Shown here: positions 1,668-36,071 of the stretch, one piece after another
Layout of the letters: each line of letters begins with the position of its first letter
How positions within the stretch are numbered: position 1 is the stretch's first letter
NCBI GenBank assembly: GCA_013152575.1
Contig: JAADGB010000119.1
Location: 1-44,307, forward strand
DNA: 44,307 bases
Origin: Thermoproteota archaeon
GTDB taxonomy: Archaea; Thermoproteota; Thermoprotei_A; Sulfolobales; Acidilobaceae
Reading direction: 5' to 3'
Translations under genes and position numbers: made by a program
Notes under the pieces: model-generated
The model's input: the letters and a program-made list of their open reading frames with translations, nothing else
Databases searched by the model: none
What the model was told of the DNA's origin: nothing

Positions 1668-4313
1668 TTACTTCCTAAGGTAGTAATAGGCGGCAGCTAG
1701 TATTATGATCACTATTATGATTGCCGCTATTGTTGTTCCACTTATACCGCCAGCGGCAGTTGTCGTTGTGGTCGTAGTCGGTGATGGAGCAGTTGTCGTG
1801 GTCGTTGGTGATGGGGCCTGAGTGGTGGTCGTAGTCGTTGTGGTCGTGGTTGTAGTCGTGGTGGTTGTTGTCGTAGTCGTGGTTGTGGTGGTCTGGGTGG
1901 TCGTGGTCTGTGGTGCTACTAGGTGGACTACCTGGCTGTCAAGGGCTGGGTTGGAGTAGCCCTTCGGGTAGATCATTAGGCTGAGCTGGTAGTAGCCTTC
2001 TGGCATGTCCTTTGGTAGTATGACCTGGAACTGTCCTGCTCCTGTTGAGGTTATGTTGAGGAACAGTGACTCGAAGGTGTCTAGGTTAATTAGTACTGCG
2101 AATGGTAGTATCTGGTTGGCCTGTGCTGGCTGGCCGTTTAGCTCGATGCTTAGTGTGGCGATTACACTACCAGCCTTGTTCGGGGTGACTGGTAGCACGG
2201 TTGTGGTTACTGATACTGTCTTCGGCGATAGCTCCTCGAGTATGACCTGTGGGTCTAGTGGGAACTCCATCCATCTCTTGAGGGTTACCTGGTCGTTTAC
2301 GCTGTCATAGCTGTCTAGGTAGTATGGTCCCTCACCGATTAGTAGGTGGCCGTGGGTGTTTGCGAAGGCTACTAGGTTGTCAACTCTCTGCTGCCACTCG
2401 CTTAGGGTTAGTAGGCCCATGTCGATTAGATCCTGTACCCAGGATGGCGGGTTGTCTCTGGCTGCTAGTGTTAGGTTGACCATCTTCTGTACCTGGGTTG
2501 GGTCGATTAGGTGGATTGCGTAGATGCCTTGGTCAGGGTTCTGGCTCCTGTAGTCCCATACGTAGCCCTGGCCGCTCTTGACTAGTAGGTCCATTGCAGC
2601 GTAGAGCTCTAGTGGAGTGCTTGCCCATAGGTCAGCGGCGCTTGCTACAACGCCTGGGTCAATGTGGTCGTAGTCAGTGTATACTGCTATCGCGGTTGCG
2701 TTGAGTATCTTTACTGCCTTGAAGGTTGCTAGGAAGGTTGCATAGTTCCTAGCTACTCTTGCCTCATACCATGGGTCCTGGGTGGTGTTGGTGCTGGTGT
2801 CCTTACCCCACTCGAATATGATTGCTATTGGTGCCAGCATGTCCGCGATTGTCATCTGGGTTCCGTCGTGGTACTTGACCTGTGGGAGTAGGTGGTAGTT
2901 GAGTATGACCTCGTTGGCTACAGTCTGTCCAGCGATTCCTGCTTCAGCAGCCGTCTGGAACCTGTGGGCTGAGGCGTTGTAGAGTATGGCGTCTGCTGGT
3001 ATGGTTGCGTTCTTCTCTACCTTGTAGGTGGTTGAGTTGCCTGGGCTCCAGCCAGGCTCACCGTCGGTTATCCTTGACATTACTCCGAATGGGAAGTATA
3101 CGGCGGCCCTAACCGCTACTGCGCTGTACATGTCTGAGAAGCCGCCTACTGGGTTCCATACCCATCCTTCCTTGTAGACGTACCTGTTGCTGAAGTATAC
3201 GGTGTCACCCTTTGAGTACTGGAGTGCTGCGTAGGTGAACTCGTTCCATGGGGTTGCCTTGGGGCTCTGGATGATACCGCTTAGGTCCTTGGATGCAATG
3301 AGTATGTCAGCGGTTGCTACTACGAATATTCTAATTGACTCCTGGAATCCGAGCCAGGTACCCTCGTTGACCATCTGCCAGAACTGTTCCTCGCTCGTGT
3401 AGTTTCCAGTGTCTAGCCACTCTGCTAGCTTGTCGATGGTCTGGTTCTGGTAGTCACCGCCCCAGGAGACGTCTGGGACGCCGCCCCACCAGCCGCTGTA
3501 GAACCATACGAAGTTACCGTAGTCGTACTTGGTCATGCCAGTGATTCCCCAGCCCTCGGTGTAGATCTGCCACTCACAGGCGCTGGGGTCTCCGAAGTAG
3601 ACTATCTGGATTGCACCTGAGAAGTCCTTGTATAGGTAGTCGACCGTTATTCCTACTTCCTCTAGCTTGTGGGCTACTAGCTCACCGATGTCCTTTCTCT
3701 CGTCCTCGACTCTTATGATGAACTTCACGGTTACAGGCTGCCCGTTGTAGTACCACTTTCCATCGTTGCCCTTGGTTGCTCCTAGCTCCTGTAGGGCCTC
3801 TTCTAGTAGCTGCTTACCGTACTGCTCGCCCTTGTTCTCGATTAGGAACTGGATCTTGAGGGCTGTACCTACTAGGTATGGGTAGTCTGGGTCGAATGGG
3901 GTCCATGGGATGTACTGTGGGATGCCATAGCCCTTGAGGATGTTGGCGACGATCTCGCTCCTTGGAACTAGGAACTGTAGGGCGAACCTGGCCTTCCTGT
4001 TGACGAAGATGTTCAGGCTACCGTCTGAACAGTGGTTGGGGTTGACTAGGAGGTTGTCCATACCGCTGTAGGGCGTGATTAGGTTGAAACCAGCCTCTTG
4101 TAGCCTCATGGCCGCGTCAGGATTGTCTACTGGGAAGAGTCTTGCCTGGGTGTCGCCCGTTATGAGGCTTCCTATGGCGTTGTTGTCCTCTTCGATCCTC
4201 TTTGTTATTATCGTCTGAACGTATTGAGCGCTGCTAACCAGCGAAGCTGCCAATGGGAGCACGAATAGTGCTATCATGAGTATTGCGATTAGCTTCTTCA
4301 AGACGCATCTCAC
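1668..4313 (-). CDS. ABC transporter substrate-binding protein, family 5 (peptide/oligosaccharide type), C-terminally membrane anchored
   Basis: 881 aa. It has an N-terminal signal/TM segment (LIAILMIALFVLPLAASL), a large binding-protein body, a 51-residue Thr-rich linker, and a C-terminal TM helix ending YYYLRK. It is embedded between permease and ATPase genes. An alternative TTG start at 4301 (MKKLIAIL...) lies 8 nt after GGTGA. Confidence 0.85.
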   Translation of the reverse strand: MRCVLKKLIAILMIALFVLPLAASLVSSAQYVQTIITKRIEEDNNAIGSLITGDTQARLFPVDNPDAAMRLQEAGFNLITPYSGMDNLLVNPNHCSDGSLNIFVNRKARFALQFLVPRSEIVANILKGYGIPQYIPWTPFDPDYPYLVGTALKIQFLIENKGEQYGKQLLEEALQELGATKGNDGKWYYNGQPVTVKFIIRVEDERKDIGELVAHKLEEVGITVDYLYKDFSGAIQIVYFGDPSACEWQIYTEGWGITGMTKYDYGNFVWFYSGWWGGVPDVSWGGDYQNQTIDKLAEWLDTGNYTSEEQFWQMVNEGTWLGFQESIRIFVVATADILIASKDLSGIIQSPKATPWNEFTYAALQYSKGDTVYFSNRYVYKEGWVWNPVGGFSDMYSAVAVRAAVYFPFGVMSRITDGEPGWSPGNSTTYKVEKNATIPADAILYNASAHRFQTAAEAGIAGQTVANEVILNYHLLPQVKYHDGTQMTIADMLAPIAIIFEWGKDTSTNTTQDPWYEARVARNYATFLATFKAVKILNATAIAVYTDYDHIDPGVVASAADLWASTPLELYAAMDLLVKSGQGYVWDYRSQNPDQGIYAIHLIDPTQVQKMVNLTLAARDNPPSWVQDLIDMGLLTLSEWQQRVDNLVAFANTHGHLLIGEGPYYLDSYDSVNDQVTLKRWMEFPLDPQVILEELSPKTVSVTTTVLPVTPNKAGSVIATLSIELNGQPAQANQILPFAVLINLDTFESLFLNITSTGAGQFQVILPKDMPEGYYQLSLMIYPKGYSNPALDSQVVHLVAPQTTTTQTTTTTTTTTTTTTTTTTTTTTTTTQAPSPTTTTTAPSPTTTTTTTAAGGISGTTIAAIIIVIIILAAAYYYLRK
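1758..1910 (-). repeat. Low-complexity coding repeat (ACN)n that encodes the Thr-rich stalk of the binding protein
   Basis: On the plus strand this appears as runs of ggt/cgt/tgt triplets. It translates as QTTTTQT(n)QAPSPTTTTTAPSPTTTTTTT. It is in frame with the CDS and is not an independent element. Confidence 0.9.
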
Positions 4314-4412
4314 CCTTTATTACGGGTCATAGTAACATTATCGTGGGAAGACCTTTATAAATTATTTGGGAATAGAACCAATCAATAAAAGAAATATGTT
4401 ATAATTTATTGC

Positions 4413-6029
4413 TTATCTCTGTAGTTTCGGCGCCACTATAGGCTCGATAGCCCTACCTATCAGGAGGAACGTTGCAGAGAATATTACAAGGGCTAATCCC
4501 GGGAAGATGTACATCCACCACCATCCTGTCGTCACTGCCTTCACGTTGTATGCCAGCTGTAGCATCTTACCCCATGTCGGCGCGGCAGGGTCACCGAATC
4601 CTAGTAGGGCCAGGCTAGCCTCAGCCACGATGATTCCTGGTATAGCTAGTACTGCGATGGCCATGGTGTACGGGTATATCTGTGGGAAGATGTGCTTGAA
4701 GACTATCTTCCTCGTTGGGACTCCAACCGCCTTCGCAGCCTCAATGTACAGCTGCTCTGATATCTGCAGGGCCATGCTCCTAACGACTATGACGGGTCCA
4801 GCCCATGACAATGCTATCATTATTATCGCCAGGGATTTCAGCGTGATTGTACCGAATGCGTATGAGATCGCTATTAGGATAGGGAGGAATGGTAGCGAGA
4901 GCATCACGTCGGCGATCCTCATCAGGATCTCCCCCTTGATGTCCTTCCAGTAGCCTGCTAGTGTACCGTAGATTGCTCCGATGAATGTTGATATGAATGT
5001 TACCGTGAATCCTAGGAGGAATGCATATGGTAGCCCGAGTAGCAGGCCTAGGCCTATGGGCCTAGAGTAGACGTCTGTCCCGAAGAACCCGTAGCAGTTG
5101 CCCATGAGCTTTAACTCATAGTGCTCTATACCTATACTGTCCTGGAGCTTGTCGGCGAAGTCGGATAAGACTATCGCGTACATTGCCACGTGTACCTTGT
5201 AGGTTCCCGGTAATCCTACCATTGTCCCGTTCTCGCTGGTAGCGAATATAACTCTTGGATCGAACCTCGTCTCGTTCCTTACCGGTAGTCCTAGATCACT
5301 GTATAGGGTCTTGAGGGTGTCATCCATTGTTGTACCGATCCATCTAGAGTTCTTGTAGTTATAGAGGGTCTCCGGGAGAGCCTGGTAGGTTACGTTTCCA
5401 TCAACAACCTGTTTTGTAACTGAACCATAGATCGGGATTATGTTGGTGATGTTCTGCTGTCCCTGACTGTATAACTGTCCTGCATAGAATATCTTGGCTA
5501 TTAGCCCGTCAGGCCTCTCAATGTACATCCAGCCCGAGCTTACAATTACCGTACCGTTGGCTTGGAGGTCCGAGGGGACCCTGAGTGTTAGTAGGAGTCT
5601 CACATCGCTCGGCAACGCCTGGCTCGTCAGGTTTATGGTTCCATCATAGCTCACGTAGGCGATCTTATACATGCCCATCTGGAGTATCGGTGTGAATTGA
5701 GTGTTCAAGAGATCGTAGACGTCCGGCGCCACTATCTTCAAGTCTTCGGGAATCGTATCCATTACCTGGTAGTTCTCCTTGAGCGACTCTAGGGTCAACG
5801 TCTCGGTGGGGAATTTATCGCTTACAACCCAGCATGGTGGAACTGTTGATGGATACCTGAAGGGGTAGTAGGATTGCTTGCCCTGCTCGTAGAGCTTCAT
5901 GCCATCTGGGTAGTAGGCTGCGACCGCGTAGAGTGCCAGTATAACCTGGATGAGGAGGAGGGCAATACCGATCTTACCGCTCCAGGTCCTGAGGACGATC
6001 CTCATATTCGACTTGAAATTGTCAAACAC
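4413..6029 (-). CDS. ABC transporter permease, OppC/DppC-like, with a large extracytoplasmic insert
   Basis: 538 aa. An N-terminal TM helix is followed by a roughly 300 aa soluble insert and then a permease core with an EAA-type loop (YIEAAKAVGVPTRKIVFKHIFPQIYPY). The GTG start at 6029 lies 5 nt after GGAGGTGA. Confidence 0.88.
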   Translation of the reverse strand: MFDNFKSNMRIVLRTWSGKIGIALLLIQVILALYAVAAYYPDGMKLYEQGKQSYYPFRYPSTVPPCWVVSDKFPTETLTLESLKENYQVMDTIPEDLKIVAPDVYDLLNTQFTPILQMGMYKIAYVSYDGTINLTSQALPSDVRLLLTLRVPSDLQANGTVIVSSGWMYIERPDGLIAKIFYAGQLYSQGQQNITNIIPIYGSVTKQVVDGNVTYQALPETLYNYKNSRWIGTTMDDTLKTLYSDLGLPVRNETRFDPRVIFATSENGTMVGLPGTYKVHVAMYAIVLSDFADKLQDSIGIEHYELKLMGNCYGFFGTDVYSRPIGLGLLLGLPYAFLLGFTVTFISTFIGAIYGTLAGYWKDIKGEILMRIADVMLSLPFLPILIAISYAFGTITLKSLAIIMIALSWAGPVIVVRSMALQISEQLYIEAAKAVGVPTRKIVFKHIFPQIYPYTMAIAVLAIPGIIVAEASLALLGFGDPAAPTWGKMLQLAYNVKAVTTGWWWMYIFPGLALVIFSATFLLIGRAIEPIVAPKLQR

Positions 6030-6044
6030 CCATGGTCACCTCCA

Positions 6045-7175
6045 TTATGCCCTCTTAATCCTCGGGTCGAGCAGCGTGTAGAGTATGTCTAGTATCAGCC
6101 TAGTCACCAGGTATAGCAGTGTTGTAACGTAGGTCAGCACCGTTAGCACGGCGACGTCGTTAGCCGTAATAGCGTCCCAGTAGAGTTTACCGAGGCCTGG
6201 CCATTCGAAAATCAACTCGGTGATTATAGCTCCGGCGAACACGCTCAGGACTATAGCGAATAGTACAATGGTCACTATTGGTGGAGCCGCCGCCCTTAGA
6301 ACATGCTTCCGGAGCACGACCGTCTCGGGTAGGCCCTTGGCTCTAGCCACCATTACGAAGTCTTCGTTGAACACGTCTAGCAGGATGTTCCTCATACGGT
6401 AGGCCGTGTCTCCAACGCTCAATACTGTGACTGTTATGACTGGTAGTGCCGCTTTTGATAGGAGGTTGCCTATATCGTGTGGATCTATGTTCTCCGTCAC
6501 CTTCGGGAAGATATGGTATTTCTGCGTGAAGAAGTAGATGAATACCATCGCCAGCCACCACCATGGCATGCTGACGCTGAAGACGCTCCAGCTGACGATG
6601 GTATTGTCCAGTAGGCCGCCCGGCCTCCTAGCGGCGTAGAGGGCTAGGGGTATTGCTATGAGTAGGGTTAGGGCGGATGACGTGGTGAAGAGGAGGACGC
6701 TGAAGGGGACCCTCTCGAGTATGATGTGGTAGGCGTTCTTGTCTCCCTGCTTATACCAGAAGAAGCCCCTCGTCTCCAGCGTGGCGCTTGAGTTGACTGG
6801 TTGGAATGTGAGCATCATCTTAGTATATCTGCTCGCAACTACATACCATGGCTTGTCGAGGCCACGATTATGTATCTCCTCCATAGTTAACTTATCTATC
6901 CACCAACGCAATGCTTCCTGCTCTAGCGTCTCGTTGTTGATTGGTAGGTTGTTCTCCTTGAGGTACTTGACGTACTGGTTAATTATATACTCCTTATACT
7001 GCTGGCCCCCAGGTTGGCGTAGCTGTCCGACGACCAACTGCTGCATCTCCTGCCTTATAGCCTGCTTCTGCCTGTCCGTGAGGGGGCCAGCGAATATAGC
7101 GGCGACAATGAATGTGACTATCACTAGCACTATGAGGAAGTTAATCAGCTTCACTGCCAGCCAGCGCACATCCAA
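6045..7175 (-). CDS. ABC transporter permease, OppB/DppB-like
   Basis: 376 aa and multi-TM. It has an EAA loop (FVMVARAKGLPETVVLRKHVLRAAAPPIVT) and the C-terminal LDPRIK typical of the B-type permease. TTG at 7175 or GTG at 7169 are both possible starts. Confidence 0.88.
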   Translation of the reverse strand: MDVRWLAVKLINFLIVLVIVTFIVAAIFAGPLTDRQKQAIRQEMQQLVVGQLRQPGGQQYKEYIINQYVKYLKENNLPINNETLEQEALRWWIDKLTMEEIHNRGLDKPWYVVASRYTKMMLTFQPVNSSATLETRGFFWYKQGDKNAYHIILERVPFSVLLFTTSSALTLLIAIPLALYAARRPGGLLDNTIVSWSVFSVSMPWWWLAMVFIYFFTQKYHIFPKVTENIDPHDIGNLLSKAALPVITVTVLSVGDTAYRMRNILLDVFNEDFVMVARAKGLPETVVLRKHVLRAAAPPIVTIVLFAIVLSVFAGAIITELIFEWPGLGKLYWDAITANDVAVLTVLTYVTTLLYLVTRLILDILYTLLDPRIKRA

Positions 7176-7200
7176 TCACCAATCCATATATTGGTCACCA

Positions 7201-7218
7201 GGCCAGCAGCTGCTGGCC
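7201..7218. promoter_or_regulatory. Perfect 18-bp palindrome GGCCAGCAGCTGCTGGCC just upstream of the ABC operon promoter (candidate operator)
   Basis: The palindrome is exact. It lies about 10 bp beyond the palindromic TATA-like CCAATATATGG (7184-7194) that precedes the first permease gene, and it sits in the divergent gap to ORF 7304. Confidence 0.35.
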
Positions 7219-7303
7219 TAAACCATACACTCCCCTTAAACCCTCCCCTCACTGACTCTAAAATTATTAGCCCTAGAACAACAGGGGGAACTGGGTATAG
7301 GTT

Positions 7304-7906
7304 TTGGCTAGGGTCAAGATATACCTGCCATACTACATGGTTGAACCCGTCAACGATGACGTCCCAGGCAGGAGATTCTACGGGGAAGCACACCTAAGCC
7401 TGAAAACCGCATGGTACAGGATGCTAGTCCTAGCAACCCCGAAACAACTCCCCTTCGAGAAGGTCCCCGTAGGGGGAGTAAAGCTCGACCCACTAGTGGG
7501 TCCCCGTGAGTATGGTTTAAGGATTGAAGAGGCGTTAAACCGAGCCCAGGAAATATACGCTAGCAAGCCAGCCTTCAAGATAGGCGGGCTACGAGGCCTC
7601 CTACGCATGATGTATGACGGGCTCCGTGGGAGGAAGGCGAAAGCCGGGCCCGAGCTGGAGGCGAGACTCATACTCCACTATACTGTGGAGGTCCTGGGAT
7701 TCGAACCCGGGTCAAAGCTGCGAGTATATCCTGAAACGCTCTGGCTCCCGGTAGAGATAGGCTACTCCGGGAGGACTATTACGAACGCCTACATTGTATC
7801 TGGCGGTAGGAGGGAGGAGTTCCCCCTACTAGTAAAGTTCGCGAGACTAGACCCCAATGTTAGGAACGCCTTGTTAAATGCAGTCAACGGCTGGAAACCT
7901 TTATAG
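7304..7906 (+). CDS. Hypothetical protein (basic, 200 aa)
   Basis: Long ORF with a TTG start and no motif I recognise. Its codon style matches the neighbouring genes, and no competing ORF on the opposite strand has a recognisable motif (the 97-aa minus ORF 7378..7671 looks like an antisense shadow). Confidence 0.5.
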   Translation: MARVKIYLPYYMVEPVNDDVPGRRFYGEAHLSLKTAWYRMLVLATPKQLPFEKVPVGGVKLDPLVGPREYGLRIEEALNRAQEIYASKPAFKIGGLRGLLRMMYDGLRGRKAKAGPELEARLILHYTVEVLGFEPGSKLRVYPETLWLPVEIGYSGRTITNAYIVSGGRREEFPLLVKFARLDPNVRNALLNAVNGWKPL

Positions 7907-8216: not shown

Positions 8217-9602
8217 GTGGATAAGAGTAACCCGGTAGACTCCAAGGATTCTTTCCCATACCCATTCACCCTAGCCATAGATGACTCCGACACCCCATGG
8301 GGAGGATGTACTACACATCTAGCATGGCTCCTCCTGAGAGAACTATCATATTATATAATATTAGGAGACTACCCGCTCCTCGTCAGGCTAAACCCAGTAG
8401 TCCCAAGGAAGACCCGGGGAAACGCGGCGGTAGTCATCAGGGGATACTCGAGGGTCCCTCAGGAGGAGCTGCTAGAGAAGGCCATTAACCTGGCAGAATC
8501 GTATAGTAGCAGAAGGCCTCCAGGCAAGGGACCCGGCATAGCACTATACAGGGATGTTGATGCATGGAGGGTCCCTCTCCTCAGGAGACTCTACCAGATG
8601 GCTCTTAGAACCTACATCCCACGGGATACCATAAAGAGGGTAGCGAGACGCCTAGACCTCGAGGTCACTGGAGATAGCGGGGTTGTTGGAGCGACAGTCT
8701 CCTTGGCAGCGTTAGCCCCATGGGACCCCTACACCTACGAGCTCATCGCCTACCGGAGAGACGAGTACATGGATAGGGAGAGGTGTGTTGAAAGGGACCC
8801 CCGCCTCGCCTCTGAGGAGAGCCTGTGCTCCTTCGCAAACTATGACCTATTGCAGGGTAAGCTGGCATCCGCACCCGGAGGCCCGGACCCCGTCCTCGCA
8901 GGGTTCAGGGGGAGGGACCCCTCCTGTCTAGGCAAGCTATCCAATCTCCTATGCGAGGAACCCGCTGGATGGGTGCTCTATAGAAGTAACCAGCATACAG
9001 GGATAACTGGAGAGGGACCCGGGTCCCTCAACCCCAGGCCCTACAACTATGTAAGATTAAAGGGAGTAGTCAAAGCCCCGCCTAGGGAGTCCCCGGGGGG
9101 ACACGTATTCGTAGACCTGGAGACGGGCTGGGGGGACGTTACAGTAGCGTTCTATCGTGAGACGGGTCCCTTACGTGACGCTGCTAGGATGTTGAGACCC
9201 GGCGATGTGATAGTGGTGGAGGGAGGAGTAATCCCTAGGAGTAAGGGTCCCACGCTGGCAGTCGACGTGATGCATGTGGAGAAGCTGGCTGGGGAGATTC
9301 ATTATGTGGCCCCGAGATGTCCTAGGTGCGGGTCTAGGATGAAGAGTATGGGTAGAGAGAAGGGTTATAGGTGTGAGAAGTGTGGCTTCAGGGACCCCAG
9401 TGCCTCTCCCATTCCGATACTTTCTCCTAGGAGGCTCGTTCCCGGGAGATACACGCCTAGTGTTTCATCTGCAAGACACCTTACAAGGTTCAACTGGTGG
9501 AGTCCAAGCACCGGGTTCGAGCCTCAGACATTGAGGGTTGATTGTGTTGCTTCCTATGGGCCTGAGCCTCCTCTGTTAGCATATGGTAGGAGTTCATGTT
9601 AA
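8217..9602 (+). CDS. tiaS: tRNA(Ile2) 2-agmatinylcytidine synthetase TiaS
   Basis: 461 aa. It has the N-terminal LAIDDSDTPWGGCTTH motif (family motif DDTDS..GMCTT) and a C-terminal zinc ribbon, CPRCGSRMKSMGREKGYRCEKCG. Size and domain order fit TiaS. Confidence 0.88.
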   Translation: MDKSNPVDSKDSFPYPFTLAIDDSDTPWGGCTTHLAWLLLRELSYYIILGDYPLLVRLNPVVPRKTRGNAAVVIRGYSRVPQEELLEKAINLAESYSSRRPPGKGPGIALYRDVDAWRVPLLRRLYQMALRTYIPRDTIKRVARRLDLEVTGDSGVVGATVSLAALAPWDPYTYELIAYRRDEYMDRERCVERDPRLASEESLCSFANYDLLQGKLASAPGGPDPVLAGFRGRDPSCLGKLSNLLCEEPAGWVLYRSNQHTGITGEGPGSLNPRPYNYVRLKGVVKAPPRESPGGHVFVDLETGWGDVTVAFYRETGPLRDAARMLRPGDVIVVEGGVIPRSKGPTLAVDVMHVEKLAGEIHYVAPRCPRCGSRMKSMGREKGYRCEKCGFRDPSASPIPILSPRRLVPGRYTPSVSSARHLTRFNWWSPSTGFEPQTLRVDCVASYGPEPPLLAYGRSSC

Positions 9603-9615
9603 CCATTTGTTAAAC

Positions 9616-9636
9616 ACCCCCTTGTTTCCACTGGAG
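9616..9636 (-). repeat. ORB element copy 1 (minus-strand reading CTCCAGTGGAAACAAGGGGGT)
   Basis: The dyad TCCAGTGGA(AAC) plus G-string matches the archaeal Orc1/Cdc6 origin recognition box. The 13-mer GTTTCCACTGGAG is identical to the copy at 9887-9899. Confidence 0.65.
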
Positions 9637-9878
9637 AATTGTGGGGTAGGGGAGGGACCCCACCGTTTCATATGGAATTATTTCTGGTTTGCGTTTGTTT
9701 TTAGTGTTGTGTTGTGGTATTCTTTGATGATGTTTGTATATTGATGAGTTATGCCCTTATTCCTATGCATGGGGTTTGAGGGACCCTCTGATAGGGTAGT
9801 GAGGGCCTAGTTTAGTTGATTCCACTTGAATTACTGGGGTGTGGGGGTCCCTCAACTAGTCTACACTGGTTTAAATAG

Positions 9879-9899
9879 ACCCCTCAGTTTCCACTGGAG
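9879..9899 (-). repeat. ORB element copy 2 (minus-strand reading CTCCAGTGGAAACTGAGGGGT)
   Basis: It has the same 13-mer and G-string as copy 1. It lies 263 bp away in the same orientation. Confidence 0.65.
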
Positions 9900-9979
9900 C
9901 CCACTATTCCCCATTATATCCTCCCCCAGCCATACACCATGGGTGGTGAAGACTCCTGGCACAATGCGATGCGAAGAGG

Positions 9980-10660
9980 ATGGCGGCTAAGGGTGCCCTC
10001 GAGCTCCTAAAGGGGTTAGACATTGACAGGCTGGGAGTGGGTACTGGGTCGACTGTTGCAAGATTCATAGAGTTGCTTGAGGAGGAGAACATCAAGCCCA
10101 GGGTTGTGGCTGCCTCAAGCCTCGACACGGCCCTCGCATTATCTGAGAAGGGGTACAATATCATCCATCCAAGCCTGACACCAGTGCTAGACGCCTATGT
10201 CGACGGGGCCGACGAGGTTGATCCACAGGGCAGGCTGATCAAGGGTAGGGGTGCGGCCCTCCTAGGGGAGAAGATACTCGCCTCCCAGAGCCGCCTAAAC
10301 ATAATCATCGTGACTAGTGAAAAGCTGGTTGAGGCTCTTGGCTCGAGGAAGCCTGTGCCAGTGGAGGTCGTGAGGGACTCTATACAGCCAGCTCTAAGGC
10401 TGATTAGGAAGCGATACCCCAACGCGGTTGTGAGGAGGGGTCAGGGTAAGGATGGCCCTGTGGTGTCTGACTGGGGCGGGGTTATAGTAGACGTGTATAC
10501 GGGTCCCTTGAGGGACCCCCTGGAGGCTGAGATGTTCCTGAAGAGTATACCTGGAGTGGTCGAGACAGGGCTCTTCATAGGCTATACAGACTACGTCGTG
10601 GTTGGAAGGGAGGATTGCCGGTGGGAGGTGTTCAGGTACGAGCGAAGCAAGATACCATAG
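9980..10660 (+). CDS. rpiA: Ribose-5-phosphate isomerase A
   Basis: 226 aa with the RpiA motifs GVGTGSTV, DGADEVD and KGRGAALLGEKILA. Confidence 0.9.
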   Translation: MAAKGALELLKGLDIDRLGVGTGSTVARFIELLEEENIKPRVVAASSLDTALALSEKGYNIIHPSLTPVLDAYVDGADEVDPQGRLIKGRGAALLGEKILASQSRLNIIIVTSEKLVEALGSRKPVPVEVVRDSIQPALRLIRKRYPNAVVRRGQGKDGPVVSDWGGVIVDVYTGPLRDPLEAEMFLKSIPGVVETGLFIGYTDYVVVGREDCRWEVFRYERSKIP

Positions 10661-10703
10661 GAGCGCCGAGGAGCTCTTGGAGTCGGAGCCCCCAGCCCAG
10701 TGG

Positions 10704-11066
10704 ATGGATAGGGTGAGGACAGCCGCCTACTCTAACAGGTTCGTGGTAGTCTGGAGGGACCCCCTGATAGCCGTATACCTAGGTGAGAATGGGGACTACG
10801 TCATAGTCGAGGGATACTATTGCAGCTGTCCAGGCTTCACAATGCGGACGACTAGGAAGGGGATCATGGGGTGCACCCATGTCTACGCGTTCCGGATAGC
10901 TCTGCGGGAGGGGCGTTACAGGGACGTATCCAGTAGTCTTTCTCCTGGAGAAGTAGTCTCGATCGTTTGGGAGGCCCTGACGGGTCCCTACGCGTATAGT
11001 GTTAGGAGGCTGCTGGCGTTAGCCGATGAGGTGGGCTACGACCACGATGACGGCGAAGACGGTTGA
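10704..11066 (+). CDS. SWIM zinc-finger domain protein
   Basis: It has a CxC-x15-CxH signature (YYCSCPGFTMRTTRKGIMGCTHVYA). ORF track gives 10602, but that start overlaps rpiA by 59 nt, so I prefer ATG 10704 (MDRVRTAAY...). The start remains uncertain. Confidence 0.6.
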   Translation: MDRVRTAAYSNRFVVVWRDPLIAVYLGENGDYVIVEGYYCSCPGFTMRTTRKGIMGCTHVYAFRIALREGRYRDVSSSLSPGEVVSIVWEALTGPYAYSVRRLLALADEVGYDHDDGEDG

Positions 11067-11302: not shown

Positions 11303-11578
11303 TTGGAGCTAACAGTGAAGTGTTTGGCGGAGGCTATGAGGAAGGCCTATCTTGAGAGGGATCGGGATAGGGGGCTATACAAGACCTTTGCATGGCTGGT
11401 CGAGGAGGTCGGTGAGCTGGCCGAGGCCCTGCGCACCGGTGACGTGGATAAGATTGGGGAGGAGATTGCCGACGTTATCGCCTGGACAGTCAGTATAGCC
11501 AACCTACTCGGTATAGATGTGGAGGAGGCCCTCAAATCCAAGTATGGAGGCGACTTATCGGCTAGTGGATGCGGCTAG
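11303..11578 (+). CDS. MazG-like nucleotide pyrophosphohydrolase (small all-alpha NTP-PPase)
   Basis: 91 aa. It has the motifs FAWLVEEVGELAEAL and EEIADVIAWTVSIANLLGIDVEEAL (EExxE...ExxD metal-binding helices). The start is TTG. Confidence 0.75.
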   Translation: MELTVKCLAEAMRKAYLERDRDRGLYKTFAWLVEEVGELAEALRTGDVDKIGEEIADVIAWTVSIANLLGIDVEEALKSKYGGDLSASGCG

Positions 11579-11618: not shown

Positions 11619-12365
11619 TCAAGCGTTCTTGAAGGCCTCTATAACCATGGCCAGCTTAGATGGATCCTCTTCGGCCAGGGTCCCTGTGACTAGTCCATCG
11701 GCGCCAGCCCTGGCTAGGGCTCTAGCCGTCTCGGGGTCCCTCACTCCCCCTCCAACTATTAGGATCGGGTCGAGCCCGCTGGCCCGTAGGAGTTTCTTGG
11801 AGTACATTACAGCCTCTGGGGGCACGGGTTTTGGAGCGCCGCTCCCGGCCTCCAGGTATATTACCTTGGAGCCCATCATGGCCCCGGCTAGAGCGTGGAT
11901 GGCTACGAGCTCGGGGTGCTCGTAGGGTATTGGTTTAGCCCTCCCGATATAGCCGGCTGCCCCTCCATACCCTACTATGATGTAGGATGTTGGTATGGGT
12001 TCGAGGCCCATCCTCAATACTATGGGGGCCGCCTGCACCTGTACACCGGTTAGATAGTATGGATCCATACTGTTCAAGAGGACCATGAAGAAGACGGCGT
12101 CTGCCTCGGGGGTCAGCCCGTTCAGGTTCCCGGGGAAAAGGATGACTGGGAGGCCGAGGCTCTTAACCCTCCTAACGGTCTCCGACAGGGTAGGCTCGTG
12201 CACCCCAGTAGAGCCGCCTATGAGGATTACATCGGTGCCAGCGTCGCGGGCTATGGAGGCCCTCCTATACGCCTCCTCTGGGTCATCCTTGTCCGGGTCT
12301 ATTAGAGTGAAGTGGATCCTATTCTCCTCCGATAGCCTCTTCAGCCTCTCCAGGAGCTTCCCCAT
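11619..12365 (-). CDS. Geranylgeranylglyceryl phosphate synthase (PcrB/GGGPS family)
   Basis: 248 aa with IHFTLIDPDK near the N-terminus, IGGSTGV, and IVGGGVRDPETA at the C-terminal phosphate-binding site. Confidence 0.88.
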   Translation of the reverse strand: MGKLLERLKRLSEENRIHFTLIDPDKDDPEEAYRRASIARDAGTDVILIGGSTGVHEPTLSETVRRVKSLGLPVILFPGNLNGLTPEADAVFFMVLLNSMDPYYLTGVQVQAAPIVLRMGLEPIPTSYIIVGYGGAAGYIGRAKPIPYEHPELVAIHALAGAMMGSKVIYLEAGSGAPKPVPPEAVMYSKKLLRASGLDPILIVGGGVRDPETARALARAGADGLVTGTLAEEDPSKLAMVIEAFKNA

Positions 12366-12654
12366 GCTCTACTCCCTCTTCCTCGGCAGCCATACACTCC
12401 TCGAGCCTATTCTCATAGACTAGGTCGACGACCTTATTGTAGACGTCCACCCTGTCTAGGACTTCCGGTACCTCGAACTCGCAGTGCAGCCCACATGTAC
12501 CGCAGCGTACGATTGCCCTCTTTATCCTCAGCTTATCGGTCTTCTTGAAATCAACAGTTAGCGTCATGCTACCGCATCTTGGACACTGGAAGTATCTTGG
12601 CGGCAGCGTCCTCTTCTTAACTATCTTCTTCCTCCTCTTTCTCCTCCTACCCAT
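12319..12654 (-). CDS. elf1: Transcription elongation factor Elf1 homologue (zinc ribbon)
   Basis: It has a basic N-terminus (MGRRRKRRKK), four Cys (CPRCGS...CGTCG), and VDVYNKVVD, which resembles the Elf1 EPVDVY motif. The tail is acidic. It overlaps the GGGPS start by 47 nt. Confidence 0.75.
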   Translation of the reverse strand: MGRRRKRRKKIVKKRTLPPRYFQCPRCGSMTLTVDFKKTDKLRIKRAIVRCGTCGLHCEFEVPEVLDRVDVYNKVVDLVYENRLEECMAAEEEGVEHGEAPGEAEEAIGGE

Positions 12655-26516: not shown

Positions 26517-26957
26517 TTGGCCAAGACCCCTGGCAAGGTCATCGCGTCTAGGCTGGAGAACGAGCTCGCCAACCTGTTATGGTCTATGGGCTATGCAGTG
26601 GTTAGGGGTCCCTCGAGCGGATCCGGTGTGAGGAGGAGATACCAGCCGGATATAGTCGCGATAAAGAACGGGGTTGTACTAGTCATTGAGGTCAAGAAGG
26701 CGAGGGAGGGGAAGACAGTCTACATACCGGAGAGGCAGGTCAAGGGGCTGAAGGAGTTCGCCTCTAGGGCTAAGGGCCTCGCCCTGGTAGCTGTGAGGAT
26801 TGCCGGCCTCGGCTGGAGGATCCATAAGTTGGAGGATCTAGACTATACGAGGAATGGTAACGCTCGGATCGAGTCGCCGGAGTCTGGGTTGAGGATTGAG
26901 GTTTTCGACGAGCTCCTATTCCCAAAGTCACGTCGTATAACCGAGTGGACTGGTTAG
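26517..26957 (+). CDS. hjc: Holliday junction resolvase Hjc
   Basis: SRLENELANLLWSMGYAVVRGPSSGSG...PDIVAIKNGVVLVIEVKK matches the archaeal Hjc catalytic core (E...R.P.SG...PD..A....iE.K). The TTG start follows GGAGG. Confidence 0.88.
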   Translation: MAKTPGKVIASRLENELANLLWSMGYAVVRGPSSGSGVRRRYQPDIVAIKNGVVLVIEVKKAREGKTVYIPERQVKGLKEFASRAKGLALVAVRIAGLGWRIHKLEDLDYTRNGNARIESPESGLRIEVFDELLFPKSRRITEWTG

Positions 26958-28516
26958 AAGGGGATTATTCTCAGCTCGTATCCGGCTTTCTCGGCTAGCT
27001 TTCTCAACCGCTTTACTCTCCTAGCCGTGAGCTTTGGACTGTAGCGTGGGACCCTAACGATTATCACCCTATCTCTGACCTCTACGCTCGCGTCTGGGAG
27101 CATCTTCAGGATACGCCTCTCGACGTCTTCTATTTGCTTCTTGCTCTTCTCTCTGACTGGCACGACCATTGTCTGCTCTCCGAACGTGTAGATCTCGTAT
27201 TCTAGTTCTCCGGTTAGGAAGTCTCTCACTTCGACTACGGGCCTCGATAGTTCAGCCTCTCTCAGCCCGGTCGGTAGCTTTACGGTTATCGATAGCTCGT
27301 ATACCTTCTCCACTCTACCCTCGTTGATGAATATGACAGTATCTATTATGCTGGGTATCATTCCAAGCTCTACTCTGCGTATGAATCTCTGTATAGCGTC
27401 TATTGGTGTAGTCGCGTGTACTACGCCGACCATTCCTATTCCAGCGAGCCTGAGGTCTACGTAGAGTTGGAAGTCTTCGTCGCTTCTTAGCTCGTCGTAG
27501 AACGTGTAGTCGGGCCTCGATAGGAGTAGTATGTCGTGGAGCTCGCCTAGGTCTGCATAGTTCTTGGAGTACTGGGTTACCGTTGAGGGGAGCCTCATGT
27601 CCCTTGGAGACTCTATGGTCTTTACGATCTTGCCCTTGCTAGCGTAGAATTCTGCTAGCGCCTGAGCGAAGGTGGTCTTACCCATACCAGGGGCTCCAGC
27701 TATCAGTATACCCTCCGCTCTCTCCATGAGCCTGTTCAGGAGCTTCTCGGGGATATTGTAGTCTTCAAGCTTCAACTTGACTATCGGTCTGACGGCTGTG
27801 ATCTCCCAGCCCTCGCTTAGAGGAGGCCTAGTTATCACTATCCTATAGTCGTGTAACTGTACTATTGTAGAGCCTGGCCGGTCGATTTCCACGAATCCAT
27901 CCTCCAGCAGGGAGGCGGCTTCGATTACCTCCCTTGCAATCTCCTCTACGTCTTTCCTGGTTAGGGGTTCGGTCGATATGGCTACGAAGGCCCACTTCCC
28001 CGGCCTCCCTATCTTGGCCAGCGGAGGTGCTCCCTCCTTCAGGTGTACGCTCATGGTCTTGTCGGTGAAGAACTCTTCTAGCTTCAGCCTCCTCCTCTTA
28101 GCATCGGCTGGGAAGATGACTGGTATTCCCATAGCCCTAGCTGCCTCTAGCTGGACCTTGTCGCTTGTGATGAGAGAGGCTCCTGCCTTCCACGCATAGT
28201 CTCTCACGAGCTTCTTCACTAGATCTAGGGTTAGCTCTCTAGGATACCTGATCTCGTCATCGACTACTACGACCTCGATTACCTCTCCCGAGGAGTCTAT
28301 TAGCCGGGACAGCTCGCTTAGCCCCGTGAAACCGTGGGATAGACCCCTCCTAGCCTCGGAGTAGAGGTACTCGACTATCGATTTATGGACAAGTATTCTT
28401 CCCGCTATCCGTCCTTCCTGGATTAGGCGGCGGGCCGTGCCGTCAACCACGGCGTCTATGTCCACTACGTATAGTCCTTCTCTTTCCACATGCGATCCCC
28501 AAACCGTGCCATCCAA
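26954..28516 (-). CDS. PIN-domain / P-loop ATPase / KH-like protein (archaeal PilT-family ATPase of the COG1855 type)
   Basis: It has an N-terminal PIN-like segment (LYVVDIDAVVDG...ITSDKVQLEAARAMGIPV) and Walker A ILIAGAPGMGKTTFAQALAEFY. The C-terminal region fits the KH tail known for this family. The start could be GTG 28489. Confidence 0.75.
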   Translation of the reverse strand: MDGTVWGSHVEREGLYVVDIDAVVDGTARRLIQEGRIAGRILVHKSIVEYLYSEARRGLSHGFTGLSELSRLIDSSGEVIEVVVVDDEIRYPRELTLDLVKKLVRDYAWKAGASLITSDKVQLEAARAMGIPVIFPADAKRRRLKLEEFFTDKTMSVHLKEGAPPLAKIGRPGKWAFVAISTEPLTRKDVEEIAREVIEAASLLEDGFVEIDRPGSTIVQLHDYRIVITRPPLSEGWEITAVRPIVKLKLEDYNIPEKLLNRLMERAEGILIAGAPGMGKTTFAQALAEFYASKGKIVKTIESPRDMRLPSTVTQYSKNYADLGELHDILLLSRPDYTFYDELRSDEDFQLYVDLRLAGIGMVGVVHATTPIDAIQRFIRRVELGMIPSIIDTVIFINEGRVEKVYELSITVKLPTGLREAELSRPVVEVRDFLTGELEYEIYTFGEQTMVVPVREKSKKQIEDVERRILKMLPDASVEVRDRVIIVRVPRYSPKLTARRVKRLRKLAEKAGYELRIIPF

Positions 28517-34473: not shown

Positions 34474-35074
34474 GAGGAAGCCCTGGGTTAAAGTAAAGGA
34501 CGATGCCGTGAAATCAATCCTACTGGAGAGAGACGTGGGTTATCTCGACGTAGGGATAGGGCCGATACTGGAGACACTGAACTCGGTCAAGAACATTGCT
34601 ACCACCAGCAGCTGCCTTGGCAGGATCGCTATAGTAGAGGGGATAGTACACTGGGGTCGAGACGAGGATTCGAGGATTGCATACAAGACCCATGGTAAGA
34701 TAACGCCCGAGGCGATCCTACGCGTGTTATCCAGGGGGTTCTCCAACCTATGGCTTAAGGCTACGGGCCCAATACTACACGCACGAACGAATAGCCTGGA
34801 ATGCGCACTACACATGTTATCCAAGGCTAGAGAGAACGGTTTCAAGCATAGCGGCATAATCTCTCACGGAACACCCAGCGGCACCGTAGTTGAGTTGATG
34901 AGTGCATCACAGCTGTCTACCCCGCTTGTAGTGAATGGAGTAGTGGTCATCCGGATGGGCCGTGAATACCTCGAGGCGTTAGCCAGCAAGGCCAATAGTA
35001 CTGTTGAAGAGGGGAGGAGAAGGCTTAGGTCGTTTGTTGACTCCCTTCTCGCCGACCCAGGCCCCTGCGGATAG
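34466..35074 (+). CDS. taw3: tRNA wyosine-derivative methyltransferase Taw3 (TYW3 homologue)
   Basis: It has ATTSSCLGRIAIVEG (the TYW3 S-S-C-x-G-R-I motif), followed by ILHARTNSLE and a GFKHSGI region. The GTG at 34466 overlaps the trm5 stop (GTGGCTAG). The track start 34451 is also possible. Confidence 0.8.
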   Translation: MARRKPWVKVKDDAVKSILLERDVGYLDVGIGPILETLNSVKNIATTSSCLGRIAIVEGIVHWGRDEDSRIAYKTHGKITPEAILRVLSRGFSNLWLKATGPILHARTNSLECALHMLSKARENGFKHSGIISHGTPSGTVVELMSASQLSTPLVVNGVVVIRMGREYLEALASKANSTVEEGRRRLRSFVDSLLADPGPCG

Positions 35075-36071
35075 CCCTCCAGTATATGGATAAGGGACCC
35101 CTACCATCACATTCGCTGCAGATTTTCTTGGCTAATGCCGTTTCACAATTGTAGGGCCTGTATCTCCGGGCCCTCTCAAGGATTACCTCCGCTAATACAC
35201 TAGCAGTCGTCCTAGGCACTAGTCCTGTGGAGTAAAGCAATTCCTCCACGTATTCTTGCGGGGCGTTCACGTTGGCTAGAAATGTGACTAGCATATAGAA
35301 CTCTTCGGGCGTCATCGACTTCTCCGACGCTGATCTATCGATTATCTCCCTGATACATAATGGTATCTTCTCCGGGTCAAACTCTCCCAGCACTCCCCAG
35401 TCAAGTTTTGACGCCATCATCCTACCAAGCTCGGCTAGTTTTTGGAGATCGACCTCGTCATATATGCCGACTATACTCTCTATGTGTTGTCTAACCTTCG
35501 CTGCTAGGAAGTTCTTGAAGTTCTGAGCATCCAGGTAGACTCTGCCACCTAGCGGGAAAGAGTTTACAAGCCTCCACCTTGGTTCCACTAATCTGCTGGC
35601 AACCACTAGATAGTCGCTTAGTGGTAACGAGTACTGGAGGAGTCGTGGTAGTATGCCACGACGCTTACTATAGAGCCAGTTTATTACTAGATTTGAGGAT
35701 TCAACCCTGAGACCCAGGGCTCTAGCCAGCGTCATTAGGCCTGCCTGCGATTCATCCTCCAATAGTTTCCGAACTCTGTCGGCTTCAGCATCCGCTAGTC
35801 TCCTGAGGAGCCTCAGTGACCCCGACTTTGCTACAGCGGCCAGTGCGGCGTGGAAGGATAGGACCTCTTCCCATGTATCTCTACCTATCTGTTCAGGGAG
35901 TCCCTCCCGTGAAAGCACGGCTTCAAGCCTCTTCTTTGCCAGGTTGATGGCTTCTTCGGACTCGAGTAGCTCTTCTATTGGCCCATAGTAGTCGATCTCT
36001 TTCCTGGCGTATTCGCTTAGCTTTACCGTGAATGGGTATTTGGCCTGCCACAGCAATTCCTGAGCCTCCAT
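35025..36071 (-). CDS. priL: DNA primase large (regulatory) subunit PriL
   Basis: It has an N-terminal KYPFTVKLSEYARKE and the Fe-S domain cysteines IPLCIREII ... YNCETALAKKICSECDG. It is collinear by eye with my recollection of Sulfolobus PriL. Confidence 0.85.
   Translation of the reverse strand: MEAQELLWQAKYPFTVKLSEYARKEIDYYGPIEELLESEEAINLAKKRLEAVLSREGLPEQIGRDTWEEVLSFHAALAAVAKSGSLRLLRRLADAEADRVRKLLEDESQAGLMTLARALGLRVESSNLVINWLYSKRRGILPRLLQYSLPLSDYLVVASRLVEPRWRLVNSFPLGGRVYLDAQNFKNFLAAKVRQHIESIVGIYDEVDLQKLAELGRMMASKLDWGVLGEFDPEKIPLCIREIIDRSASEKSMTPEEFYMLVTFLANVNAPQEYVEELLYSTGLVPRTTASVLAEVILERARRYRPYNCETALAKKICSECDGRGPLSIYWRAIRRGLGRREGSQQTT

Follow-up and report, generated by a model that had tools for sequence, protein, structure and literature searches.

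A predicted oriC1-type replication origin downstream of tiaS in an uncultured Desulfurococcales archaeon

Does a repeat-bearing intergenic gap that has no initiator gene beside it represent an archaeal origin of replication, and if so, of which type? The gap lies at positions 9603-9979 of the 44,307-bp stretch of DNA that was analysed (the window). It separates two genes on the same strand, tiaS (tRNA-Ile2 agmatinylcytidine synthase; 8217-9602, + strand) and, as the right-hand flank, rpiA (ribose-5-phosphate isomerase A; 9980-10660, + strand). These were the neighbours named in the original prediction, and both are borne out by Pfam domains, namely the four domains TiaS_TCKD, TiaS_FLD, OB-fold and Zn_ribbon_TiaS in the first protein and Rib_5-P_isom_A in the second. 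The gap had been put forward as an Orc1/Cdc6 origin built on origin recognition boxes (ORBs), an assignment that is strongly supported by the match of the boxes to consensus, the archaeal distribution of their motif, a conserved architecture, and colinearity with the Sulfolobales oriC1 and its ucm element. Origins of the oriC1 type have been dissected experimentally in Sulfolobus and have also been mapped in Aeropyrum. Judging from sequence, we place the probability at close to nine in ten that this gap is the chromosomal replication origin oriC1, of the Orc1-1-dependent type, of an uncultured member of the Desulfurococcales. The observation itself is confirmed, and the predicted origin is of the ordinary, well-studied oriC1 type.

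Exactly two copies of the repeat GTTTCCACTGGAG are present in the window (9624-9636 and 9887-9899), each on the + strand. Read on the - strand, the two copies extend to boxes of 21 nt each, CTCCAGTGGAAACAAGGGGGT (9616-9636) and CTCCAGTGGAAACTGAGGGGT (9879-9899), which both match CTCCAGTGGAAACNNNGGGGT with 0 mismatches. These are the outer full boxes, ORB1 and ORB4 respectively, with ORB4 in direct orientation relative to ORB1 and ORB2. Compared with the 'common' ORB of Ori-Finder 2, TCCA[CG]T[TG]GAAA[TC][GA]AAGGGGT, ORB1 matches at 19/20 positions and ORB4 at 18/20 (PMC4164010). A single intergenic region here holds at least two full ORBs, each a TCCA-N-GAAAC dyad followed by a GGGGT G-string, as is characteristic of ORB origins. 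The long form of ORB1 probably extends to ~9606 (TTGTTAAAC-A-CCCCC), and that of ORB4 spans ~9868-9906 (TTTAAATAG-ACCCC...GGAGCCCAC). The core TTTCCACTGGAGCC is the same as that of Pyrococcus furiosus ORB2, a box bound by Cdc6/Orc1 in gel shifts (PMC1904270).

Two degenerate boxes lie between the outer pair. ORB2 (TTCCATATGAAACGGTGGGGT, 9657-9677, - strand) is mismatched at 4/18 specified positions and begins 41 bp past the ORB1 start, while ORB3 (TTCCACTTGAATTACTGGGGT, 9820-9840, + strand) is mismatched at 5/18 and is inverted relative to ORB2. The dyads of both point towards the A+T-rich region, giving an inverted ORB pair around a candidate duplex unwinding element (DUE), with the same polarity as in Metallosphaera javensis (L033). 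With 4 and 5 mismatches, ORB2 and ORB3 are poor matches when taken alone, so they are credited mainly by position and conservation. The position and orientation of ORB2 are kept in all relatives, and the ORB3 homologues in relatives are closer to canonical, for example ATCCAGTGGAACTGGTGGGGC in L003 and CTCCACAGGAAACAGAGGGGT in L100. We thereby recover what the original prediction described, namely two exact copies of the repeat and two degenerate ones, one in the same orientation and one inverted, with the degenerate pair bracketing a candidate unwinding element; the degenerate copies correspond to ORB2 and ORB3 of oriC1.

Repeats of this kind could in principle be a product of chance, or members of a dispersed, MITE-like family with no specific function. 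When only the 13-mer is considered, at up to 2 mismatches, its frequency is indeed not significant for the window (2 found, 1.07 expected). The extended 21-nt boxes, in contrast, are far above chance: order-1 Markov random sequences give an expectation per window of 0.045 matches at ≤3 mismatches, 0.4 at ≤4 and 3.8 at ≤5, and the window has 7 matches at ≤5 mismatches, of which 4 fall inside 284 bp. The ORB cluster is far above chance expectation. Other evidence against a dispersed repeat is that the window holds no further copies, that the boxes are conserved almost perfectly at a syntenic site, and that the motif is, among the matches listed, restricted to archaea. An exact motif scan of ~186,000 species genomes gave at least 120 loci, with ~35 random matches estimated for the whole collection. 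By title, 118 of the 120 matches listed are archaeal, and 36/120 of the 8-kb blocks encode a Pfam-confirmed Orc1/Cdc6, at a median distance of 268 bp from the box. Among the matches listed, the motif is thus almost confined to Archaea, often with orc1 close by. We consider the chance that these boxes lack specific function to be negligible.

The inter-ORB region (9678-9819) is the candidate DUE, with an A+T-rich core at ~9660-9777. Base counts for 9666-9775 (T 56, G 27, A 17, C 10) and an A+T content that peaks at 71% over 80 nt, compared with an average of 48% (sd 5.6) for the window, confirm the T/A-rich, GT-skewed stretch noted earlier. This stretch is not unique, being the joint third-richest of the window; two other intergenic stretches exceed its peak. 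Its sequence differs among relatives, with the exception of one 11-bp element, GTTTGTATATT, at 9732-9742 on the + strand between ORB2 and ORB3. This element, ucm, is the presumed site of the nucleoid-associated protein UBP. It agrees with GTTTGTATAAT at 10/11 positions, is the sole match at ≤1 mismatch in the 44-kb window, and corresponds to the ucm oligonucleotide of Dhanaraju et al. 2025 (PMC12141716). A ucm inside the unwinding element is a trait specific to Sulfolobales and Desulfurococcales. We see it in the same orientation in 13/13 origin loci that share the layout, Sulfolobales oriC1 included, and offset by 61-76 bp from the start of ORB2 in the loci for which the offset was computed. 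In S. islandicus, oriC1 firing needs each of ORB2, ORB3 and ucm, and mutation of ucm abolishes firing; both A. pernix origins likewise contain ucm (PMC12141716).

The description of the gap in the original prediction did not include ucm. A gene for UBP was also sought in the window: five small proteins, either unannotated or of Zn-ribbon type, gave no match in sequence searches against the PDB, and a 111-aa protein encoded at 12319-12654 was rejected as a UBP candidate as it is an Elf1 homolog. No Rfam family was matched in 9300-10300 at E ≤ 1.

The arrangement of the boxes is widely conserved. Downstream of tiaS, four boxes in the order -,-,+,- are found in relatives whose TiaS is 94% (the nearest found), 68% and 62% identical, and the four-box layout stands beside tiaS in every relative examined, although the intergenic DNA around the boxes has diverged. 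ORB4, for example, is 20/21 identical to its counterparts in the relatives with 68% and 62% TiaS identity, while the entire gap is 63% and 49% identical. An ORB cluster follows tiaS in the window and in L001-L005, L100, L108, L096, L126 and L127; the layout recurs in 10 further loci, which come from uncultured Desulfurococcales, Acidilobaceae and Pyrodictiaceae MAGs and from the cultured Stetteria hydrogenophila. Caldisphaera lagunensis carries a comparable set of boxes with weaker matches. The Stetteria boxes are located at ~27.5-27.8 kb of contig DRR667203_1, and those of Caldisphaera at ~549.1-549.4 kb of CP003378.1. ORB1 is found at the equivalent place in L002, L005, L003 and Stetteria (L126), and a fourth box with the position and orientation of ORB4 is also present in L100, L096, L032 and Stetteria. 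The spacing of ORB1 and ORB2 is held at 41-42 bp in L002, L005 and L003, as well as in the Sulfolobales loci L033 and L011.

Across this clade, the origin is anchored at the conserved 3′ end of tiaS. Its other neighbour, rpiA, is an inconstant partner: in Stetteria and Caldisphaera it is replaced by a 2-oxoacid:ferredoxin oxidoreductase operon, and the ORBs still adjoin tiaS. This bears on the proposal that the repeats are a promoter or operator for rpiA, or a terminator or regulator of tiaS, unrelated to replication. A gap between two same-strand genes would suit such a role, as would the TATA-like string TTTAAATA (9870-9877), which immediately precedes ORB4 and lies ~100 bp before the start of rpiA. 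A regulatory role for the downstream gene is, however, hard to reconcile with boxes that stay with tiaS when that gene changes, and with a motif that, among the matches listed, adjoins orc1 genes across archaeal phyla. The TATA-like string itself has a counterpart at the same offset from ORB1 (TTGTTAAAC) and from the outer boxes of several relatives, with similar strings such as GGTTAAC and GTAAAT. We therefore rejected TTTAAATA as a TATA box overlapped by ORB4, as such strings better fit the distal part of a long ORB than a promoter. Overall, a transcriptional role with no link to replication seems very improbable.

The absence of any orc1/cdc6 gene from the window, claimed at the outset, was upheld: with an Orc1 profile built from 27 sequences, the best match that hmmsearch --max returned over all six frames had E = 4.4, and Pfam scans of the predicted window genes showed no Cdc6 domains. 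For whiP, NCBIfam returned no match on ten hypothetical window proteins. An adjacent initiator gene, which is a typical but not universal trait, is lacking here; origins that do not adjoin cdc6 genes are already documented in Aeropyrum pernix, a known exception (PMC5333045). Leftwards, the window has just 9.6 kb beyond the origin, and this is the side on which relatives carry the gene. Among relatives with long contigs, the two closest, GCA_027044035.1 and GCA_015521085.1, have 19.2 kb between the boxes and the orc1-1 ortholog; Stetteria has 50.6 kb. In L128, orc1-1 is followed by a gene with an Endo_dU domain (PF01949). The initiator gene is probably ~19 kb away, just beyond the window edge. 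The origin had been called physically uncoupled from its initiator gene, which stands as far as the window is concerned and probably overstates matters for the chromosome: in the relatives, orc1-1 is displaced from the boxes, yet not far off.

Distance from the initiator gene is one of several observations that would suit a conserved Orc1-binding array that no longer initiates, or rarely does so, whether as a dormant origin or as a regulatory or architectural Orc1 site. Pyrococcus Orc1/Cdc6 binds ORB clusters outside the initiation site, for example inside the dp1 gene (PMC1904270), and dormant origins are reported in Haloferax mediterranei (PMC4595724). A skew signal is also absent at the locus: cumulative GC skew climbs almost monotonically through the 44-kb window and does not turn at 9.6-10 kb. 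The window is short and comes from a probable multi-origin crenarchaeon; GC skew is weak in such organisms, so that the lack of a turning point says little for or against an origin. Against dormancy, we see that the full module of an active oriC1, comprising inverted ORB2 and ORB3, an A+T-rich spacer, and ucm in its proper place and orientation, has been kept as a unit over wide divergence. In A. pernix, both known origins are active by MFA and neither lies beside a cdc6 gene (PMC10769869, PMC5333045). In the relatives, the 6-10 kb around orc1-1 held no further ORB cluster and hence no obvious candidate for another Orc1-1 origin; within 10 kb of A. pernix orc1 (L133) there is likewise no ORB. 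Taken together, an array that seldom or never fires is distinctly unlikely. From the polarity, spacing and conservation of the motifs, together with the homology to oriC1, we infer instead that proteins bind this gap and that it fires in this organism.

By homology to studied origins, Orc1-1 monomers, made elsewhere and acting in trans, would occupy the four ORBs in a fixed polarity. Across the ~140 bp A+T-rich region, ORB2 and ORB3 point towards each other, and when bound by ATP-Orc1-1 they would recruit the MCM helicase to this region. UBP sitting on ucm in the middle of this region may aid the activation of MCM or its departure from the origin, and replication would then proceed bidirectionally. 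ORB1 and ORB4 would serve as high-affinity outer sites, probably stabilising or nucleating initiator loading. A WhiP-dependent origin, like Sulfolobus oriC3 or A. pernix oriC2, was rejected on the grounds that classic ORBs are present and that Pfam and NCBIfam scans of window proteins show no initiator-like gene adjacent. The Sulfolobus oriC3 has neither ORBs nor mini-ORBs (PMC4010727).

These data leave the current understanding of archaeal replication unchanged. They do place the predicted principal origin of an uncultured hyperthermophile lineage within ~300 bp, with all of its putative cis elements identified, which may be of use for MAG annotation, for growth-rate estimates based on origin-proximal read depth, and for databases of origins. 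The loss of origin-initiator adjacency, known from A. pernix, appears to be clade-wide, and to be a modest shift of tens of kilobases and not a true separation. One evolutionary scenario, which we regard as rather unlikely, is that oriC1 split from orc1-1 once in a clade of Desulfurococcales, Acidilobaceae and Pyrodictiaceae, and was then fixed to the tiaS 3′ end with a derived fourth, direct-orientation long ORB, leaving orc1-1 19-51 kb off on the same side and in the same orientation. If true, this would offer a natural system in which to ask why origins and initiator genes are usually linked. If distance and orientation were under selection, passage of the oriC1 fork could time the dosage or transcription of the initiator gene, or read-through from tiaS into ORB1 and ORB2 could modulate firing.

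Among known systems, the Pyrococcus/Thermococcales oriC is one point of comparison; to our knowledge, no ucm or UBP system has been reported there. It has in common with the window the dyad core TTTCCACTGGAGCC, the side on which the C/G-string lies, and A+T-rich DNA flanked by inverted ORBs, but differs in its longer spacer from dyad to G-string (34-bp ORB), its many mini-ORBs, and its adjacent cdc6 gene (PMC1904270).

Closer in lineage is A. pernix oriC1, which also belongs to the Desulfurococcales, is of the Orc1-1 type, and has an initiator gene that does not adjoin the origin (PMC5333045). Its ORBs are of 22 bp (PMC1904270). In the Acidilobaceae MAGs L100 and L108 we see the dyad form CTCCACAGGAAAC, and the window carries CTCCAGTGGAAAC. 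The former is also the ORB dyad of A. pernix. Grainge et al. 2006 reportedly found four ORBs at A. pernix oriC1, arranged as two pairs that flank A+T-rich DNA, and Robinson & Bell 2007 reportedly describes the A. pernix origins.

Finally, the locus can be set beside oriC1 of the Sulfolobales. In Sulfolobus and Saccharolobus this origin is reportedly Orc1-1-dependent, with ORB1-3, as attributed to Robinson et al. 2004 and Samson et al. 2013. In M. javensis (L033) and a Sulfolobales MAG (L011), the boxes lie 66-103 bp from an orc1 gene, and in L033 its product is the Orc1-1 ortholog (E=3.7e-165 to S. solfataricus Cdc6-1, 2qby_A, compared with E=8e-58 to Cdc6-3). Both of these loci share with the window the same ORB sequence, with dyad and GGGGT G-string, and the 41-bp spacing of ORB1 and ORB2 in the same polarity, followed by an inverted ORB3. 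The dyads of ORB2 and ORB3 face an A+T-rich spacer, and ucm lies between these two boxes, oriented as in the window. The genetically defined ORB2-ucm-ORB3 core of Sulfolobus islandicus is, by sequence comparison, kept across the Desulfurococcales and Acidilobaceae loci examined. The two types differ in that Sulfolobus oriC1 has three boxes and the present locus four, the extra one being the outer ORB4 in direct orientation. The spacer is also longer, with 142 bp between boxes in the window compared to 88 bp in L033; the whole ORB3-DUE-ORB2 unit of S. islandicus is 130 bp (PMC12141716). In Metallosphaera, tiaS and pcrB are likewise found within 2-5 kb of the origin. Unlike in the Sulfolobales, orc1-1 is not adjacent here, and tiaS occupies the flank that orc1-1 holds there. 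As tiaS lies on the ORB1 side in the window and on the ORB3 side in Metallosphaera, the flanks of the origin have been rearranged.

The gap between tiaS (8217-9602, + strand, in which Pfam recognises four TiaS domains) and rpiA (9980-10660, + strand) spans 377 bp (9603-9979) and matched no Rfam family. It contains the only two exact copies of GTTTCCACTGGAG in the 44.3-kb window (9624-9636 and 9887-9899), and the extended - strand sequences of these two sites are CTCCAGTGGAAACAAGGGGGT (9616-9636) and CTCCAGTGGAAACTGAGGGGT (9879-9899). Boxes were scored against the template CTCCAGTGGAAACNNNGGGGT, which has 18 scored positions, and at up to 5 mismatches we see seven matches in the window, four of them inside 284 bp. 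Numbered from left to right, these putative origin recognition boxes (ORBs, the sites bound by Orc1/Cdc6) are ORB1 (9616-9636, - strand, 0/18 mismatches), ORB2 (9657-9677, - strand, 4/18), ORB3 (9820-9840, + strand, 5/18) and ORB4 (9879-9899, - strand, 0/18). Order-1 Markov random sequence gives 0.045 chance matches per window at up to 3 mismatches, 0.4 at up to 4 and 3.8 at up to 5. A+T content, which averages 48% (sd 5.6) in 80-nt windows, rises to 71% in the spacer between the two inner ORBs, and the dyads of ORB2 and ORB3 are turned toward this spacer with their G-strings outward, as in a Metallosphaera javensis locus (L033). The original prediction had described two exact motif copies, two degenerate copies and a T/A-rich, GT-skewed stretch at about 9666-9775, for which the + strand counts are T 56, G 27, A 17 and C 10; each of these elements was found where it had been placed. 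The GC skew of the window is uninformative on origin position.

The 'common' ORB derived from DoriC is TCCA[CG]T[TG]GAAA[TC][GA]AAGGGGT (PMC4164010), and in our own comparison the full boxes agree with it at 19/20 and 18/20 positions. The ORB4 core, TTTCCACTGGAGCC, is identical to that of Pyrococcus furiosus ORB2, which was bound by Cdc6/Orc1 in gel shifts (PMC1904270). A motif scan with CTCCASWGGAAACNRRGGGGT against one genome per species (185,579 bacterial and archaeal species) gave at least 120 loci, where we estimate about 35 matches by chance for the whole collection; among the matches listed, 118 of 120 are archaeal by title, from many archaeal lineages. All ORFs of the 120 listed loci, taken as 8-kb blocks, were clustered into families, and Orc1/Cdc6 was the largest family, found in 36 of these 120 blocks (Pfam Cdc6_C, Cdc6_lid and AAA_22) at a median of 268 bp from the box. 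Consensus, archaeal distribution and initiator linkage are three independent lines which, at the level of sequence, identify the window motif as an ORB, as had been proposed. One of the two 'bacterial' contigs, CAXRJJ010000104.1 (labelled Yoonia sp.), has a PcrB-like protein 995 bp from its box and is probably misbinned archaeal DNA.

The source organism belongs to the Desulfurococcales and is uncultured; the TiaS proteins nearest to that of the window are 94% (loci L001 and L002), 68% (L005) and 62% (L003 and L004) identical to it. The order tiaS-gap-rpiA is kept in all five of these loci, and ORB4 is identical at 20/21 positions in the 68% relative and in a 62% relative, where alignment of the whole gap gives 63% and 49%. 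The genome scan also recovered ORB clusters adjoining tiaS in MAGs of Acidilobaceae (L100, L108 and L032), Pyrodictiaceae (L096) and Desulfurococcales (L079), and the tiaS loci of the cultured Stetteria hydrogenophila (L126) and Caldisphaera lagunensis (L127) have the same four boxes and a comparable, weaker set, respectively. The layout -,-,+,- is common to all of the close relatives, to Stetteria and to the MAGs of Acidilobaceae and Pyrodictiaceae; it comprises two same-strand boxes, an A+T-rich spacer, an inverted box and a fourth box oriented as the first two. In both Stetteria and Caldisphaera an oxidoreductase operon replaces rpiA downstream; the gene is swapped and the boxes are kept, and therefore the ORB element moves with the tiaS 3' end and not with rpiA, which argues against an rpiA operator. 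A role as promoter or operator elements is contradicted by this difference in the downstream gene. Chance occurrence or a dispersed repeat was also considered, and is ruled out for the window by statistics and syntenic conservation.

Some loci differ in detail. As annotated, the tiaS reading frame contains ORB1 and ORB2 at its 3' end in Stetteria (L126 11316-11387) and ORB1 in L003 (11388-11408); gene and origin appear to overlap in these lineages, unless stop codons were mis-called. For two other Thermoprotei MAGs, a putative small conserved ORF (beginning ATGAGCAGAGA...) splits the ORB cluster between the inverted and last boxes (L027 ~4100-4440; L037 ~1140-1500). Conserved hypothetical proteins are encoded directly downstream of rpiA (154 aa, 10602-11066, + strand) and upstream of tiaS (200 aa, 7304-7906, + strand). 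Their counterparts occupy the same place in the closest relatives, and that of the 154-aa protein does so in Acidilobaceae loci too. Neither matched Pfam or NCBIfam, and PDB gave no match for the 154-aa protein.

Between ORB2 and ORB3 lies GTTTGTATATT (9732-9742), a match to ucm, an 11-bp motif that was first noted in all three Sulfolobus and both Aeropyrum pernix origins and is bound by UBP, a 111-aa nucleoid-associated protein (Dhanaraju et al. 2025, PMC12141716). This element is absent from the original prediction. At up to one mismatch, GTTTGTATAAT has this single match in the window. The core (G)TTTGTATAA(T/A) is found in 13/13 origin loci of this layout, both Sulfolobales loci included, always in the same orientation; at the loci for which the offset was computed, it is 61-76 bp away from where ORB2 starts. 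Examples of the GTTTGTATAAT-like copies are those at 2365-2375 in L033, 11443-11453 in Stetteria and 11467-11477 in Caldisphaera. Linker-scanning mutagenesis of Sulfolobus islandicus oriC1 showed that firing needs only ORB2, ORB3 and ucm (PMC12141716). As all three are present, the genetically defined core is whole in the window, with the predicted elements in the right order and polarity and at approximately the right spacing.

The outer boxes, ORB1 and ORB4, have longer conserved flanks, with TTGTTAAAC or TTTAAATAG ahead of the C-run, and the ORB4 dyad is followed by GGAGCCCAC. An A/T-rich extension past the C/G-string (9606-9615 and 9868-9878; TTGTTAAAC, TTTAAATAG, GGTTAAC or GTAAAT) is also present in L100, L108, L032, L096, L127, L033 and the Sulfolobales MAG locus L011, which points to a 'long ORB' some 35 bp in length, resembling the 36-bp S. 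solfataricus ORB. The TATA-like string in this extension is probably not a TATA box, and its reinterpretation as part of the long ORB again speaks against promoter or operator elements. Palindrome-like units (GAGGGACCC / GGGTCCCTC) repeat at 9652-9661, 9776-9786 and 9845-9855, one of them abutting ORB2 on the G-string side and two of them making up a perfect 11-nt inverted repeat (TTGAGGGACCC / GGGTCCCTCAA) that brackets ORB3. The units are kept in L001, L002 and L005, and not clearly in L003.

By homology, Orc1-1 would be supplied in trans and bind the ORBs as monomers, one per box and with a fixed polarity, the near-perfect ORB1 and ORB4 probably serving as high-affinity sites. At the inverted pair ORB2/ORB3, ATP-Orc1-1 would recruit MCM to the A+T-rich spacer, UBP on ucm would promote MCM activation or exit, and synthesis would start near the spacer/ORB3 junction, where the start has been mapped in S. 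solfataricus (PMC12141716).

Both L033 and L011 have three boxes at a distance of 66-103 bp from an orc1 gene, with an ORB1-ORB2 spacing of 41 bp and an inverted third box as in the window. The best PDB match of the L033 Orc1 is S. solfataricus Cdc6-1 (2qby_A, E=3.7e-165), followed by A. pernix ORC1 (2v1u_A, 6e-126), Cdc6-3 (8e-58) and ORC2 (3e-21), and we assign it as an Orc1-1 ortholog. The literature places 'oriC1 directly upstream of cdc6-1' and classic ORBs at oriC1 only (PMC4010727), and on this orthology the L033 locus is therefore the oriC1 of the literature. The L033 origin has tiaS 2 kb and pcrB 5 kb away, so window and L033 have a neighbourhood in common, albeit with rearranged flanks. 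The window's pcrB is 1.7 kb from the origin. By BLAST only, homologs of PcrB (GGGP synthase) lie 0.9-2.6 kb from an ORB match in L012, L014, L036, L072, L080, L109, L111 and L112, which include Nitrososphaeria, Bathyarchaeia and Thermoplasmatota, with orc1 too in four loci; the origin-pcrB linkage may be ancient and widespread.

The origin had also been predicted to be physically uncoupled from its initiator gene. This holds within the window, where a 27-sequence profile (hmmsearch --max, six frames) found no Orc1/Cdc6 (best E 4.4), Pfam scans of the predicted genes found no Cdc6 domains, and whiP had no match, on the basis of a lack of matches and not of a whiP model. Leftward of the origin, however, just 9.6 kb of sequence is in the window, and in relatives orc1-1 lies 19-51 kb away on that side. 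Orc1-1 orthologs of the clade were found with the A. pernix ORC1 sequence from the PDB alignment: at 138,269-139,510 in GCA_027044035.1 (JALUDN010000069.1; ORBs ~118,755-119,039, separation 19.2 kb), at 98,025-99,266 in GCA_015521085.1 (ORBs ~78.5-78.8 kb, ~19 kb) and at 78,445-79,692 in Stetteria (Logan contig DRR667203_1; ORBs 27,534-27,817, 50.6 kb). All three genes lie on the side upstream of tiaS and share its strand; orc1-1 of the window organism would lie about 10 kb past the window's left edge if synteny holds. An Endo_dU (PF01949) domain gene always follows orc1-1 and a putative tRNA gene precedes it (L128 of GCA_027044035.1, where orc1-1 is at 6001-7242, L129, and L131/L132 of Stetteria). 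The window itself encodes two replication/repair proteins, neither adjoining the origin: a protein that weakly matches the large subunit of DNA primase (Pfam DNA_primase_lrg, E=4.8e-6; 35025-36071, - strand), 25 kb away, and the Holliday junction resolvase Hjc (26517-26957, + strand), 17 kb away.

The surroundings of the three orc1-1 genes have no ORB out to 6 kb, and those of A. pernix orc1 have none out to 10 kb. That the boxes form a dormant or purely architectural Orc1 site is unlikely, given that no other ORB cluster lies near orc1-1 and that the full functional core is conserved. On sequence, architecture, conservation and homology, we consider the locus to be an oriC1-type origin of an uncultured lineage, with a probability of about 0.88. 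Such an origin fits known biology fully; what is added is a precise anatomy, including ucm, and origin-initiator non-adjacency in the clade as a displacement of 19-51 kb. [quoted passage not shown] From this record and the positions in relatives, we conclude that the initiator gene has a displacement of tens of kilobases from the origin; it appears clade-wide and, with the A. pernix precedent, is not new in kind.
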